DNA from: an uncultured Dehalococcoidales bacterium
GTDB lineage: Bacteria > Chloroflexota > UBA6077 > FW602-bin22
Length of the DNA: 64,000 nucleotides
Direction of reading: 5' to 3'
NCBI GenBank assembly: GCA_964536925.1
Contig: CAZHZF010000010.1
Span: 904-64,903, forward strand
In this document: positions 3,896 to 36,245 of the stretch, in pieces
How the letters are laid out: every line of letters begins with the position of its first letter
How positions within the stretch are numbered: the first letter of the stretch is position 1
Translations under genes and position numbers: made by a program
Notes under the pieces: model-generated
Told to the model about the DNA's origin: nothing
The model's database searches: none
What the model saw: only the letters and a program-made list of their open reading frames with translations

Positions 3896-3967
<72 letters not shown>

Positions 3968-4008
3968 CCGATGGGCGGCTGGCATCTTCGCCAGCAGCGC
4001 ACGTGCGG

Positions 4009-30639: not shown

Positions 30640-31154
30640 CCACCGTTCTCTATCCCGGAACGTTCGATCCCATCACGCGTGGCCATGTCGACATCGCCAC
30701 GCGCGCGGCCGCCCTGTTCGACACCGTGGTCGTCGGCGTGTACGACACACCCAACAAATCGCTGCTATTCGATACGGCCACGAGGGTCCGCCTGGCGACG
30801 GGCGCACTCATGCGCATCAAGAACGTGCGGGTCACCGCCTACCAGGGCCTGACGGTCGACTTCGCCCAGGAGTGTGGGGCGGGTGCCATCGTCAGGGGCC
30901 TGCGCGCGTACTCGGATTTCGAGAACGAACTGCAGATGGCGCATCAAAACCGGGCGCTGAGACCTCGTATCGAGACCGTCTGCCTTATGACAAGCCTTGA
31001 ATATAGTTACCTGAGTTCCACGCTCCTGAGGGAAGTCGCGCGACTCGGAGGAGACATACGATCGCTCGTACCGGAGAATGTCGAGTTGGAACTTGAGGCA
31101 CGATTCGGCGCCGAGACGCACCACGACGCGATTCCGCGCCACCTGCACTCGTGA
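30636..31154 (+). CDS. coaD: phosphopantetheine adenylyltransferase
   Basis: YPGTFDPITRGHVDI, LRAYSDFENE, SSTLLREV. GTGA overlap upstream. Confidence 0.95.
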   Translation: MTTVLYPGTFDPITRGHVDIATRAAALFDTVVVGVYDTPNKSLLFDTATRVRLATGALMRIKNVRVTAYQGLTVDFAQECGAGAIVRGLRAYSDFENELQMAHQNRALRPRIETVCLMTSLEYSYLSSTLLREVARLGGDIRSLVPENVELELEARFGAETHHDAIPRHLHS

Positions 31155-31684
31155 TGACGAGCCTGGAACCAGACGGTCTCGCGCGGCTTAACGAGGTTCT
31201 CGAACGCCTCGAGACACTCGTCACCGGCGCGTCACGCGTCCCCTTCACCACCCGCTTCATGGTCGACGAGCAGGAGTTTGTCGGCCTGATGGATCAAATC
31301 CGCGGGATGATCCCGGAGGACTATCGCGTCGCGAGGCGCGTCGTCGCCGAGCGAGACAAGATCCTCAACCAGGCACGCTCTGAGGCAGAGAGGATGATTG
31401 CCGAGGCCGAGGAGAAAGCGGCGGAGCGACTGAGCACGGACACGCTGGTCCAGCAGGCACGGGCCCGCGCGGACGATCATGTTCAGGAAGCGCTCTCACG
31501 TGCCGAGGAAGTGCGGCGCGGCGCCGACCACTATGCTCTGGAGACTCTGGAGACTCTGGAGGGCCAGTTGATGCGCCTGCTGACCACCATCCGTCGGGGC
31601 AAGGACACCCTCCGGGACGCGCTCTTCGAAGGGTCGGACGCGGAGGTGCGTCAGACGGACTCCGAGATCAGTTTTCGCTCGTGA
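31151..31684 (+). CDS. hypothetical coiled-coil protein (177 aa)
   Basis: Overlaps the coaD stop. Long helical, charged sequence (ARSEAERMIAEAEEKAAERL...). Family not recognised. Confidence 0.55.
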   Translation: MMTSLEPDGLARLNEVLERLETLVTGASRVPFTTRFMVDEQEFVGLMDQIRGMIPEDYRVARRVVAERDKILNQARSEAERMIAEAEEKAAERLSTDTLVQQARARADDHVQEALSRAEEVRRGADHYALETLETLEGQLMRLLTTIRRGKDTLRDALFEGSDAEVRQTDSEISFRS

Positions 31685-32109
31685 GCCCGCGCGTCGGCGG
31701 CCGAGGGAACACCGGGGTCACACGCACCGCCCGATTCGACGACCCGCGTGACGCCAACCGCGCCACCCGCGCGCTGATGAAGGAACTGAAGCTTCGGCCA
31801 ACGGACGTTCGGGCGGTTCTTTCGCCAGGCCCGGTGAGCGAGGGCGCGGGATACCTCGGCATCACCCGGTCGATGCCGGTAATCGTCCACGTGTCGGCAA
31901 GACAACCGGATCAGGCCGACGCGATCGCCGCGATCCTCTTGAGAAGTGGTGGCGAGATGCTCGATGACATCGCCACGCGATCGACGGGCGGATACGGGCC
32001 GACCAGCGCCCACGGCCGCGAGTCCATCATCGGCGGAGCCTCGACGACGTCGGCGATGGCGACGCATCGGTTCACGGAGGCACCCGAAACACCCGCCGCG
32101 GGGGAGTGA
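31681..32109 (+). CDS. hypothetical protein (142 aa)
   Basis: GTGA overlap with the previous gene and high third-position GC. The competing minus-strand ORF 31651..32367 looks like a shadow frame. Confidence 0.45.
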   Translation: MSPRVGGRGNTGVTRTARFDDPRDANRATRALMKELKLRPTDVRAVLSPGPVSEGAGYLGITRSMPVIVHVSARQPDQADAIAAILLRSGGEMLDDIATRSTGGYGPTSAHGRESIIGGASTTSAMATHRFTEAPETPAAGE

Positions 32110-32157: not shown

Positions 32158-32685
32158 ATGCGATACAACGTGGCGCAACTCCTCCACGAGGACGTGGGCG
32201 CCCGGCGCGTCGTGGAGATTGGCGATGCGCGAGGTACACTCGATTGTCTGACTCTGCTCGCTCCCCTCAAGGGGACGGTCCGACTGATGCGCACGAATCG
32301 TGGCATCCTCGCCACGGGCGTCGTCGAGACGATCGCCGAGAGCGAGTGCAGTCGATGTCTGGAGCAAACTCGTGTGCCGCTCCGCGTGGAACTCGCCGAG
32401 GAGTTCTTCCCCCTTGTCGATCTCCGTACGGGCCTACCCGCGCCGCACAAGGATGACGTCGAGGGGTTTATGCTGACGGAGACTCACGAACTCGATCTCG
32501 AGGAACCGGTTCGACAGGGAGCACTCGTGCAGATGCCAATGCAGCCGCTCTGTCGAGACGATTGTCGCGGGCTCTGTCAGCAATGCGGGGCGAACCTCAA
32601 CGAGGCTCCGTGCACCTGCGCCGCCCGAGCGGCCGATCCACGGCTCCACGATCTGGCGCGCTGGCTCAAGAATTCAGGCGATTGA
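32158..32685 (+). CDS. yceD: YceD/DUF177 family protein
   Basis: CSRCLE...CRDDCRGLCQQCGANLN motif. Lies immediately upstream of rpmF, as in most bacteria. Confidence 0.88.
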   Translation: MRYNVAQLLHEDVGARRVVEIGDARGTLDCLTLLAPLKGTVRLMRTNRGILATGVVETIAESECSRCLEQTRVPLRVELAEEFFPLVDLRTGLPAPHKDDVEGFMLTETHELDLEEPVRQGALVQMPMQPLCRDDCRGLCQQCGANLNEAPCTCAARAADPRLHDLARWLKNSGD

Positions 32686-32698
32686 GTGAGGACGTAGA

Positions 32699-32896
32699 AT
32701 GCCGCCACTTCCAAAGCGAAAGTACGCCAAGGCCCGCCAGGGCGACCGCCGCCAGCACCTGGCCGTGGCCGTGCCGAATCTGGTTGAGTGCAGCAGCTGC
32801 CGACAGCTCCGGCAGTCCCACCACGCGTGCCCGCATTGCGGTCAGTACCGTGGCCGCCAGGTGATCGCGATTCAGGCGTCCGGCCGGACAGACTGA
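32699..32896 (+). CDS. rpmF: 50S ribosomal protein L32
   Basis: PKRKYAKARQGDRR..., zinc-ribbon C..C...CPHCG. Confidence 0.93.
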   Translation: MPPLPKRKYAKARQGDRRQHLAVAVPNLVECSSCRQLRQSHHACPHCGQYRGRQVIAIQASGRTD

Positions 32897-32903
32897 CCAC
32901 GAG

Positions 32904-34253
32904 GTGGGCCGTGGGCTCATCTTTCCGGGCCAGGGTTCCCAGGCCCCCGGTATGGCGCAGGCGGTCGCGAGCGAATCGCCGGCGGCTCGGGCGACGCTCC
33001 TGCGGGCAGAGAAGATAACCGGCCTTCCAATCCCGCGATTGTGCATTGAGGCCCCCGACGAGGAGTTGCGGCGCACCGACGTCGCTCAGCCGGCGATTCT
33101 CGCGACCGAACTCGCGATTCTCGCGAGCATTCGCGAGTCCTTCGCCCTTGAGGCGGAGGACTCCCTGGCACGACTCAACGTCCTCGCCGTCGCCGGGCAT
33201 TCCCTGGGGGAGTTCGGCGCGTGCGTCGCCGCGCAGAGCCTGAGCGAGGAGACCGCGCTGACCCTGGTGCGCGAGCGCGGTCGCCTGATGGCCGAGGCGC
33301 GCGACGGAGCAATGGCGGCCGTGCTCGGCGGCGAGGCGGACGTCGTCGCGGCGACCTGCGCCACGATTTCGGGGCTGGTCATCGCCAACGACAACGCGCC
33401 CGGGCAGATTGTCATCTCTGGTCCGCCGGCGGCGATCGCCGAGGCGACCCCACGATTGCTCAAGGCGGGAGTCAGACGCGTCGTGCCCCTGAACGTCAGC
33501 GGCGCCTTTCACTCGCCCCTGATGGCTGCGGCACAGAGTGCCTTCGCGCCGCTCGTTGCCGAAGCGGAGATCCGAGAACCTCGTGTCGCGATCGTTGGGA
33601 ATACGGATGCGCGCGCGCTCCTCTCCGCGGCGGATGTCCGCGCGGAACTCGGTGCACAGATGACCGCGCCAGTTCGGTGGCGGGAATCCATGCTGCGCCT
33701 GGTGGAGATAGGCGCCACATCGCTGATCGAGTGCGGTCCGGGAGAGGTCCTCATCGGACTCGCCCGCCGCACGGTGAGCGGGATCGCGCTCCGAACGGTC
33801 CATAGCCGGAGCGACACGGGAGTTCTGGGCACCGCCTATGTACGCGAACTCGCGCTCCAGGCGCTCTATGAGGGAGATGCCACCGATCATCCCGCGCACG
33901 TTGTGATCGGGCGCCTCGTCGAGGCCCTCGACGTGCCATTCGCGCTTCGGGAGGAGGCGCGCCACGCCGTCGCGCGCGTCGTCCGGAATCGTGCCCGCAT
34001 CGACGAGGAGATCGCGATCGGCGCACCCGCCTGGCCAGTTCCCCAGATGGCGCGTGTCGAGCGGGGAATCCTTCGTCTTGCATTGTCCGAGGGCATTGGG
34101 GATAATGCCGCGACGCTTGATCGGGCTTCGATCGATGGAGCGTTGGAACTGGCGAGGACGTTCGGCGGCGAGACATCGGTCAAGTTTGTAAACGGGGTGC
34201 TGAGTTCGCTGGCCGAGAGACAAGCGCCGCCCACGCAGCGGGCAAACGCCTGA
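32904..34253 (+). CDS. fabD: malonyl-CoA:ACP transacylase (FabD) fused in frame to a NusB-like domain
   Basis: FabD motifs FPGQGSQ, GHSLGE, NVSGAFHSPLM, ECGPG up to about residue 305. From 33831 the frame shows NusB-like RELALQALYEGD, RIDEEI, ERGILRLALSE, ELARTFGGETSVKFVNGVLSSL. No intervening stop. Confidence 0.85.
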   Translation: MGRGLIFPGQGSQAPGMAQAVASESPAARATLLRAEKITGLPIPRLCIEAPDEELRRTDVAQPAILATELAILASIRESFALEAEDSLARLNVLAVAGHSLGEFGACVAAQSLSEETALTLVRERGRLMAEARDGAMAAVLGGEADVVAATCATISGLVIANDNAPGQIVISGPPAAIAEATPRLLKAGVRRVVPLNVSGAFHSPLMAAAQSAFAPLVAEAEIREPRVAIVGNTDARALLSAADVRAELGAQMTAPVRWRESMLRLVEIGATSLIECGPGEVLIGLARRTVSGIALRTVHSRSDTGVLGTAYVRELALQALYEGDATDHPAHVVIGRLVEALDVPFALREEARHAVARVVRNRARIDEEIAIGAPAWPVPQMARVERGILRLALSEGIGDNAATLDRASIDGALELARTFGGETSVKFVNGVLSSLAERQAPPTQRANA

Positions 34254-34310
34254 CACATTTCGCTGGCTCAGCGGCGGCGACGCCGGCTGTGAATCCTGTG
34301 GAGGTCACAA

Positions 34311-34550
34311 GTGGCTGAGGACACCTTCCCCCGCGTCAAGAAGATCATCGTCGAGCAGCTGGGCGTCGAGGAGGATGAAGTCATCCCGACTGCCTCCTTC
34401 GTCGAGGACCTGAACGCCGACTCCCTGGACCTGGTCGAACTGATCATGTCCTTCGAGGAGGAGTTCGGTATGGAGATCTCGGATGAAGAGGCCCAGAAGA
34501 TCGTCTCCGTACAGGACGCGGTGGACTACATCACCGAACATCTCGACTGA
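34311..34550 (+). CDS. acpP: acyl carrier protein
   Basis: 79 aa, [13 protein letters not shown] phosphopantetheine site. GGAGG upstream of GTG. Confidence 0.95.
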
Positions 34551-34638: not shown

Positions 34639-35463
34639 ATGTTTAACATCGGGCCGGTCGAGTTCATCGTCATCGTCGTTCTGGCGCTGGTGGTGTTCGG
34701 CCCGGAGAAGTTGCCCGACCTCATGCGCGGCGCCGGGCAGGCGATCCGGGAGTTCCAGCGCGCGTCGCGAGAACTGACCGAGGTCTTCCAGGAGACCCAG
34801 GAACAGTTCACTGAAGTCATCCACGATACGCGGGAGGAGTTCAGTCAGGCGCTGTCGCTCGATGAGCCGCTGATGACGAGTTCGTCCTCCGCGGGCGCCG
34901 CCACAGGTCCCGCCGCAACGGAGTCCACAGCGACAGCCGCCCAACAGACCGAGGATCTGGTACCCGTCGAAAGCGAGGTCGCGATCACCGCGAACGCCCC
35001 ACCGCCGCCACGCGAGATGGAAACCGCGGCGGGAATGCTGGATGATGTTGTCGCGCTCGACCCAGAACCAGCCTCCGTGAACGGCATCGCGGAGCACGCC
35101 TCGGCGTTGCCGCCGGTCGCCCCGGCGTCGCCGGGCGTCAGCGCGGCGGTCGCCGCACGCAGGCCGCGGCGCCGCAAGGCCGAACAGCCGGCCACACCGG
35201 TGGATGAAGGGCACGCGCCCGGGGACTCCACATCCAACGGTGCAGGGGGCGAGGACTCTTCTCCCGACATGAAGCCGGTCGGCCCGGGCGCGCGACGCGG
35301 TCGACGGGTGCCAGAGGCGAGCGCGAGCACGGGAGACGCTGCGGCGCCTGCAATCGGCTCGGCCGCGGGTGATACGGGCCATCCCCGGGTGCCGGAAGGC
35401 GCCGCGCTGTCCGCGCCGCGCTCGCGCCGCCGGGCCGCGGCTCCCCCCGAGGCAGGCGCCTGA
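34639..35463 (+). CDS. tatA: Sec-independent translocase TatA/TatB-family protein with long low-complexity tail
   Basis: MFNIGPVEFIVIVVLALVVFGPEKLP + amphipathic helix, then ~200 aa rich in A/P/S/G/E. Confidence 0.8.
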   Translation: MFNIGPVEFIVIVVLALVVFGPEKLPDLMRGAGQAIREFQRASRELTEVFQETQEQFTEVIHDTREEFSQALSLDEPLMTSSSSAGAATGPAATESTATAAQQTEDLVPVESEVAITANAPPPPREMETAAGMLDDVVALDPEPASVNGIAEHASALPPVAPASPGVSAAVAARRPRRRKAEQPATPVDEGHAPGDSTSNGAGGEDSSPDMKPVGPGARRGRRVPEASASTGDAAAPAIGSAAGDTGHPRVPEGAALSAPRSRRRAAAPPEAGA

Positions 35464-36245
35464 TGTCGTTCCTCGATCGCGTACGGGTCGGCCCCCTGGC
35501 GCCGCTTCCCCCTGAGGAGACCGCCGAAGAGGCCGAGGAAGAACTCCAGCTAACTCTGGTCGAGCACCTCTCCGAGCTTCGGGGCCGCATCCTGGCCTCC
35601 GTGATCGGACTGGTGGTGACCACGGCAGTCGCCTTTCTGTTCACCCCCTGGCTGGTCGGGGTACTGCTCGCGCCCGCGCCCGCCTCGCTCCGCGAGCGCG
35701 GCCTCATTTTCACCGAGCCAACTGAGGCCTTCTTCACCTACTTCCAGATCGCCCTCTATGCCGGGGTGGGGCTGGCATCCCCATGGCTTCTCTTCCAGAT
35801 CGGTCGATTTGTCTTCCCCGCGCTGACGAAGCGTGAGAAGGCGATGTTCTGGCGATTTCTGCCCCTTTCTTTCATCTGTTTCTGCGCGGGAGTAACGTTC
35901 GGCTACACGATCACGCTTCCGTTCGCTCTCCGGTATCTTCTGGATTTCACCATTGGCGGTCTGCTCACGCCCTACATCACCGTGGGCAACTACATGGGCT
36001 TTGTGACCGCGATCGTGTTCTGGATGGGTATCGCGTTCCAGACCCCCTTAATCGTACTGTTCCTCACAAAGATCAACGTGGTGACAGTGCCGCGACTCGT
36101 CGCCTTTCGCAAGTATGCCGTCCTGGGCGCATTCGTTATCGCGGCCCTGATCACGCCAACCCCGGATCCCCTGAACCAGGCGCTGGTCGCGATCCCCCTG
36201 TGGTTTCTGTATGAGACGGGGATCATCCTGGCGCGGATCTTCTGA
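35463..36245 (+). CDS. tatC: Sec-independent translocase TatC
   Basis: LVEHLSELRGRI, six TM segments, typical TatC length. The ATG shares one base with the tatA/B stop (TGATG). Confidence 0.93.
   Translation: MSFLDRVRVGPLAPLPPEETAEEAEEELQLTLVEHLSELRGRILASVIGLVVTTAVAFLFTPWLVGVLLAPAPASLRERGLIFTEPTEAFFTYFQIALYAGVGLASPWLLFQIGRFVFPALTKREKAMFWRFLPLSFICFCAGVTFGYTITLPFALRYLLDFTIGGLLTPYITVGNYMGFVTAIVFWMGIAFQTPLIVLFLTKINVVTVPRLVAFRKYAVLGAFVIAALITPTPDPLNQALVAIPLWFLYETGIILARIF

Follow-up and report, generated by a model that had tools for sequence, protein, structure and literature searches.

Why should an enzyme of fatty-acid synthesis and a factor of ribosomal RNA (rRNA) transcription share one reading frame? 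This question is raised by a single open reading frame (ORF) at positions 32904–34253 (+) of a stretch of 64,000 nucleotides (nt) of contig CAZHZF010000010.1 (assembly GCA_964536925.1), from an uncultured Dehalococcoidales bacterium; this whole stretch is referred to as the window. The ORF, here called fabD::nusB, joins FabD, the malonyl-coenzyme A (CoA):acyl carrier protein (ACP) transacylase, to NusB, a core rRNA antitermination factor that acts with ribosomal protein S10 at the periphery of RNA polymerase. A preliminary description of the locus had left three options: a genuine fusion (possibly also yielding free NusB by internal initiation), a lost stop codon, or an assembly indel. Here, we show that the fusion is genuine and inherited, and we ask how it arose, what it produces and what became of its two halves. 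The reading we favor, at a probability of roughly 0.75, is an inherited bifunctional fusion that was made by a small deletion between two translationally coupled neighbors, with each domain keeping its own role.

The frame starts with GTG, runs for 449 codons plus a stop, and contains no internal stops, so that the uninterrupted frame of the preliminary description is confirmed. Its orthologue on JGI contig L001 (8008–9357) has the same length and starts with ATG at the codon that corresponds to GTG 32904; because a start codon is conserved at this position, we take GTG 32904 to be the true start. The FabD domain spans residues 1–292 (32904–33779), where the Pfam Acyl_transf_1 model matches residues 6–292 (E 5e-35, 121.8 bits vs a cutoff of 32.7) and the NCBIfam fabD model TIGR00128 is covered from position 5 to 287 of 290. 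A junction of 20 residues (293–312; 33780–33839) leads into the NusB domain (residues 313–438; 33840–34217), which is followed by a C-terminal tail of 11 residues and a TGA stop (34218–34253). Here, the Pfam NusB model matches residues 314–437 (E 1e-17, 65.2 bits vs a gathering score of 23.1) and the NCBIfam nusB model TIGR01951 is covered from position 5 to 129 of 131. Thus, both parts named earlier from motifs alone are full-length domains, and all the motifs quoted at the time are present.

The reality of the fusion is carried by independent assemblies. The preliminary description had proposed looking for the same fusion in related genomes, and it is indeed found there. Among 5.8 billion proteins, a first homologue search found that of the window itself (in a 433-residue call) and a second cluster, P0002, with the same 449-residue two-domain architecture at 87% identity. 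P0002 sits on contig L001, whose synteny with the window extends from recG to past tatC, and its eight members come from JGI, NCBI, ENA, Logan and MetaClust. The fusion also lies in one ORF, of identical length and on a syntenic contig, in the GTDB representative genome 'Chloroflexi bacterium K_Offshore_80m_m1_189' (VGOZ01000005.1, L005); the Tanganyika metagenome-assembled genome (MAG) is 97.7% complete, with 3.4 Mb, 66.8% G+C and no classification below phylum (PMC8245535 supplement). Seven full-length fusion sequences, including that of the window, could be aligned, some of them called from a later ATG. In total, the same 449-codon frame is present without a single indel in eight independently assembled sequences that represent two lineages at 87% protein identity.

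Selection was read from a comparison of the two lineages. Over 1,350 nt, the window and L001 genes are 85.4% identical in DNA and align without an indel; of the differences, 36/29/132 are at codon positions 1/2/3 of the + frame, which identifies the + strand as the coding one. The ratio of nonsynonymous to synonymous substitution rates (dN/dS; Nei–Gojobori) is 0.12 in FabD, 0.13 in NusB and, across the 20 codons of the junction, 0.34, with an overall dS of 0.47. Both halves are therefore under purifying selection. For a metagenome-derived, high-GC source (66% G+C in the window) and a very rare architecture, an artefact might have been suspected, be it an indel from assembly or sequencing or a chimeric contig. 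However, eight assemblies that share the frame, two lineages that are 14.6% divergent without an indel, differences concentrated at third codon positions, and synteny that is kept on both flanks leave this explanation with a negligible probability. Because the same frame recurs without indels in independent assemblies and both halves are under purifying selection, the assembly-indel option is excluded, and fabD::nusB is a genuine inherited fusion. An antisense ORF of 559 codons (32577–34256, −) spans the whole fusion gene and is most likely a high-GC artefact.

The gene is easily overlooked. Database calls of the fusion protein (NCBI P0001; Logan P0270 and P0271) start at ATG 32952, giving 433 residues and losing the FabD GQGSQ motif, and the GenBank label of the orthologue reads 'acyltransferase domain-containing protein' only. 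Because the gene is mislabelled and given too late a start, automated surveys would score this clade as lacking nusB.

How rare is this architecture? As a query that spans the junction, we joined the final 105 residues of FabD to the complete NusB and searched 1.84 billion representatives at 50% identity exhaustively. Both parts of the query were matched by the window's own cluster only (515 bits); all other hits scored at most 115 bits and matched one half only. Among the inspected hits with two matched stretches or with junction-crossing alignments, no FabD–NusB fusion was found, and a literature search found no description of one. The domain architecture is thus apparently undescribed and limited to a single narrow clade of uncultured Chloroflexota from freshwater, although the fusion itself is a known process acting on two well-known families.

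Several look-alikes were rejected as FabD–NusB fusions. P0028 is a FabD of 369 residues whose C-terminal ~50 residues are an apparent out-of-frame read into the next gene; in this case, from another Chloroflexota lineage, either the fabD stop was lost independently or sequencing introduced a frameshift. P0030, like P0028 an odd-length hit of the first search, is a FabD in tandem or chimeric form, and in P0164 and P0173 the FabD carries an unrelated tail. On the NusB side, P0217 and P0261 carry disordered, basic, Pro/Ala-rich N-terminal extensions of ~110 residues, and P0123 is a tandem NusB duplication. These last three proteins show a wider range of NusB architectures than the 140-residue protein of the textbooks.

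How did two genes become one? The closest unfused FabD homologues, at 51–53% identity, are encoded in the same operon on three Chloroflexota contigs, L002 (GCA_036506375.1, contig DASXRS010000268.1), L003 and L004. Their gene order is recG-rsmD-coaD-two unknown ORFs-yceD-rpmF-fabD-nusB-acpP-tatA-tatC, with separate fabD (316–321 residues) and nusB (147–152 residues) genes that abut or overlap by 4 nt and with a nusB frame offset from that of fabD by 1 or 2 nt. When the fusion is aligned to the concatenated split pairs, a single gap of about 16 residues appears at the junction. The fusion lacks ~5 residues at the end of FabD and ~11 at the beginning of NusB, together with the fabD stop and the nusB start. 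The remaining junction reads ...SDTGVLGTA followed by YVRELALQALYE, and peptides that cross it in the predicted fusion protein are ...SDTGVLGTAYVRELALQ... and ...SDTGVLGTAYVRELALQALYEGDATDHPAHVVIGR. Residues 293–312 are a degenerate remnant of the FabD C-terminal helix, joined straight to NusB helix 1.

The fusion thus derives from neighboring genes, and the simplest event to produce it would be a single deletion of ~47–52 nt, although a multi-step route is also possible. In the ancestor, fabD and nusB would have been adjacent and translationally coupled within yceD-rpmF-fabD-nusB-acpP, an operon that is conserved in Chloroflexota. The loss of this many nt, a length not divisible by three, would have brought nusB into the fabD frame and removed the final ~5 codons of fabD with its stop, as well as the start of nusB with its first ~11 codons. 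Of the lost-stop option this leaves the historical part, as the stop went with the ~16-codon deletion; in any other sense the option does not hold.

The wider phylum places this event in a series. Both genes are also found at 29 further Chloroflexota loci, and they are split in 29/29. The order is fabD-fabG-asp23-nusB in Anaerolineae, Thermoflexales and Roseilinea, and fabD-asp23-nusB in Ktedonobacterales and others; in some Chloroflexia, fabD and nusB are 70–180 nt apart, and they abut in L002–L004 and L023. The asp23 gene is missing from the fused and the abutting lineages. From this graded spacing, it follows that the fusion is the end point of progressive operon compaction, and the conservation of fabD and nusB as neighbors across Chloroflexota explains how it arose. 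Specific loci in which fabG and/or an Asp23-family gene lies between fabD and the linked nusB are L006 6913–8351, L017 2109–2999, L046 7143–8032 and L013 6963–8193.

Does the fused gene yield one product or two? In the window, start codons in frame occur at two sites near the junction: GTG 33774 (codon 291), which lacks a Shine–Dalgarno sequence, as the preliminary description had stated, and additionally GTG 33903 (codon 334), which lies within NusB. Free NusB could be released by initiation at such a site, or by proteolytic cleavage at the junction, in which case the fusion would exist at the genetic level only. Some features are consistent with this: the junction is the least constrained part of the gene, the GTG at codon 291 is conserved in frame, and a GGGAG sequence is present at 33818–33822. 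However, codon 291 lies inside the region of the last FabD strand, codon 313 is GTA in the window and GTG in L001 only, and the GGGAG is 15–17 nt away from any candidate start. Comparing the window with L001, we found no conserved junction start codon with a ribosome-binding site, so that the internal initiation proposed earlier is unsupported. The operon likewise showed neither a site resembling a promoter nor a convincing terminator, and shuffled sequences folded as well as the junction RNA (z = +0.79). Internal starts, recoding and separate transcription were rejected on these grounds, and a two-protein outcome is improbable. Because a conserved junction start, promoter, terminator and special RNA fold are all missing, a single translated polypeptide is most likely the product, judging from the sequence.

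Is this polypeptide still a FabD? The motifs GQGSQ (residues 9–13), G98-H-S100-L-G-E, R125 in ERGRLM and G200-A-F-H203-S are present and align with solved FabD structures, and the catalytic motifs are invariant in all seven fusion sequences. In the AlphaFold2 (AF2) model, the domain has a predicted local distance difference test (pLDDT) score of 95–99. Its context, with rpmF upstream and acpP directly downstream in all relatives, is that of housekeeping fatty-acid synthesis and not of a polyketide cluster. The N-terminal domain is thus predicted to move malonyl from CoA to ACP.

And is it still a NusB? An AF2 model of this half, built from an alignment of 70 sequences, has the seven-helix NusB fold (pLDDT 90.8, predicted template modelling score 0.86), and the top 16 Foldseek matches to it in PDB are all NusB, with template modelling (TM) scores of 0.69–0.85; RsmB structures match weakly, below all NusB structures. 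Full-length models from mixed alignments were rejected, as MAFFT had put all free NusB rows on the FabD region; their NusB half rested on two sequences, and its low pLDDT and continuous helix at 302–324 are unreliable. The NusB half lies between the FabD part and acpP, the position that free nusB has in L002–L004, and is 52–53% identical to the free proteins. On the basis of fold and synteny, we identify it as the nusB orthologue.

The functional surface of NusB is known from structural work. The basic arm of NusB (K2–R8 in E. coli) contacts the 5′ part of the BoxA RNA, contacts start from this protein's N-terminal amino group, A4–R8 of E. coli become ordered on BoxA binding, and F122 and E81 form the pocket for BoxA U8 (Stagno et al., PMC3177189). 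E. coli Y18, E81 and F122 belong to the U8 pocket and the S10 interface, with roles taken from the same paper, and their equivalents in the fusion (Y322, E386 and F428) do not vary within the clade. N-terminal extensions of 15–43 residues or more are present in about a third of free NusB proteins, with ~110 residues also seen, so appendages at this end are tolerated and compatible with the NusB family.

Other observations weigh against the view that both domains simply kept their roles. The fused NusB begins at the equivalent of E. coli A9–R10, so the basic N-terminal arm is absent, with ...GVLGTAYV in its place; in the eight positions before the conserved Arg, the fusion has 0 basic residues, whereas free NusB have at least one in 67/68 cases and at least two in 57/68. 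Near-invariant positions of the BoxA-binding helix α6 are changed (P99→L405, N105→D411, E106→G412). The fused domain scores 79–85 bits with TIGR01951 (80.9–84.8 for the window) vs a cutoff of 88.35, and the free sister proteins of L002–L004 score 115.7–119.4. The FabD half is slightly affected as well, with TIGR00128 scores of 252.3 (window) and 248.5 bits (L001) vs a cutoff of 260.9 and 275–287 for the split sisters. Finally, three-point branch lengths, which were derived by hand from the distances, make the fusion branch about 3× that of its sisters for NusB and 1.4× for FabD. The preliminary description had left it to NusB models to accept or reject the C-terminal 140 residues, and the answer is divided: Pfam accepts them well above its threshold, whereas they fall just short of the NCBI equivalog cutoff.

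The branch lengths rest on L002–L004 being nearer to the fusion clade than 13 outgroups are (distances 0.72–0.75 vs 0.91–1.14). For NusB, the mean distance to these outgroups is 1.138 for the fusion vs 0.764 for the split sisters (1.49×), and for FabD it is 0.914 vs 0.780 (1.17×). By this sequence comparison, evolution of the NusB half sped up after the fusion. The state that resulted is now conserved, since residues 382–439 are identical between the window and L001 lineages. We initially considered the changes on the BoxA surface as exceptional, and this has been downgraded: at 45 conserved positions the fusion departs 10 times and free NusB 5.1 ± 3.7 times, and 9/68 free NusB depart at least as often. 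What stands out clearly is the missing arm alone, as 1/68 free NusB is armless. The split sisters keep an intact R-x-x-R-R-x-A arm. Taken together, the lost arm, the faster branch, the sub-cutoff score and the α6 changes mean that a canonical NusB function of the fused domain is not assured, as far as its sequence can tell.

These same features are what one would expect if the NusB moiety had been neofunctionalized or partly disabled, that is, if it had lost BoxA recognition and taken on another role (binding another RNA or protein, or regulating FabD) while a free nusB resides elsewhere in the genome. However, the domain sits at the orthologous nusB locus and is now under strong purifying selection, the two lineages being identical over ~70 residues at the C-terminal end, it retains the Y18, E81 and F122 equivalents, and its number of departures is within the range of ordinary NusB. 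Moreover, six-frame tblastn found no second fabD or nusB within the 64 kb window, and no free NusB more than 46% identical was found in the database. We therefore consider neofunctionalization, the main rival reading, unlikely, if worth keeping in mind. According to the bifunctional reading, one polypeptide of 449 residues would be made, and its C-terminal domain would act as NusB, pairing with S10 and binding BoxA RNA (both predicted) without a basic arm and after a burst of sequence change.

Does the covalent link itself serve a purpose? Most likely, the fusion is a tolerated by-product of tight operon packing that guarantees 1:1 co-production, with no cooperation between the two activities. 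As a long shot, the tether could be functional and physically couple ribosome biogenesis and rRNA transcription to membrane-lipid synthesis at its first committed transfer step. FabD might then join the rrn antitermination complex, or the substrate- or ACP-bound state of FabD might set how available NusB is, and the accelerated remodelling of the BoxA surface would be an adaptation to the new role. The fusion would in that case represent the extreme of a wider linkage of nusB to lipid genes, seen as fabD-asp23-nusB in Chloroflexota and accBC-asp23-nusB in Firmicutes.

The operon around the fusion is as the preliminary description had drawn it, with a yceD-rpmF-fab-acpP cluster followed by tatA/B and tatC, now checked by ORF and Pfam analysis. 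All of these genes are on the + strand. Upstream, yceD (32158–32685; DUF177, large-subunit rRNA accumulation protein; Pfam YceD E 1.4e-25) holds the same place in L001–L004, and rpmF (32699–32896; ribosomal protein L32; Pfam Ribosomal_L32p E 3e-20) ends 7 nt ahead of the fusion gene. The next gene downstream, acpP (34311–34550; Pfam PP-binding E 1.4e-12), encodes the acyl carrier protein, which is the substrate of FabD, and its position is kept in L001–L004. It is followed by a tatA/B-like gene (34639–35463; Pfam TatA_B_E) and by tatC (35463–36245), the latter annotated at the equivalent position in L001–L004. The TatA/B-like protein has 274 residues, of which the TatA_B_E model matches residues 4–52 only; the remainder is a long, Ala/Pro/Glu-rich low-complexity tail that far exceeds the typical TatA length, and the versions in the relatives have 257–304 residues. 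Between coaD and yceD lie two further ORFs (31151–31684, 177 residues; 31681–32109, 142 residues; both +), neither of which matches a Pfam model significantly. L001–L004 have ORFs of similar size at these positions, making the pair conserved unknowns within a ribosome/lipid operon.

Elsewhere in the 64 kb window, a tRNA-Arg gene (anticodon CCG; 3896–3969, +) is the sole RNA gene detected; the Rfam scan gave no other feature, and the window holds no rRNA leader or rpsJ. BoxA-like elements do not exceed chance in the window (6 matches with 3 mismatches vs 2.1 expected; 3/100 shuffles reach six).

What does the fusion mean beyond this clade? Here, NusB has long been inherited as a domain at the C-terminal end of a metabolic enzyme of 33 kDa and without the N-terminal arm implicated in BoxA binding, and an armless, fused NusB could set bounds on the requirements of NusB function. 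In the manner of a 'Rosetta stone', the fusion also points to a conserved and unexplained linkage between nusB and fatty-acid synthesis in Terrabacteria, which could mean that ribosome and membrane production are coordinated. In Bacillus subtilis, we take the gene order to be accB-accC-yqhY-nusB, with an asp23-family gene next to lipid genes. A role of YqhY in lipid synthesis has been described (PMC5437119). The asp23(yqhY/rfaA)-nusB arrangement of Firmicutes thus resembles that of Chloroflexota in linking nusB to lipid-synthesis genes, whereas there the linkage is one of operons only, with no fusion.

The direct unfused counterpart of fabD::nusB is the split fabD–nusB pair of L002–L004, with an identical gene order from recG to tatC and about 52% identity in both proteins. 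The split relatives have two genes in different frames, with a stop and a start between them. Compared with free FabD (E. coli, PDB 1MLA and 2G2Z; Synechocystis, 4RR5), the fusion has the same full-length domain with its Ser100/Arg125/His203 motifs and likewise lies in a yceD-rpmF-fab cluster directly upstream of acpP; it differs in an added C-terminal NusB domain of 137 residues and in the loss of ~5 residues of the C-terminal helix. With free NusB (the Aquifex NusB–NusE–BoxA complex 3R2C, E. coli NusB–S10 3D3B, Thermotoga 1TZT), it shares the all-helical fold, the Y18/E81/F122 equivalents and the KFVNGVL motif. Unlike those proteins, its NusB has no free N-terminus and a deleted basic arm, and it carries the P99L/N105D/E106G equivalents. 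A NusB fold that works within a larger polypeptide has a precedent in RsmB/Sun/Fmu, the 16S rRNA 5-methylcytosine (m5C) 967 methyltransferase (PDB 1SQF). Pfam detected no S-adenosylmethionine-dependent m5C methyltransferase domain in the fusion, and RsmB models reached E 0.004–0.08 only. In RsmB, the NusB-like domain is a paralogue that stands N-terminal to the methyltransferase, whereas in fabD::nusB a true NusB follows its enzyme partner at the C-terminal end.

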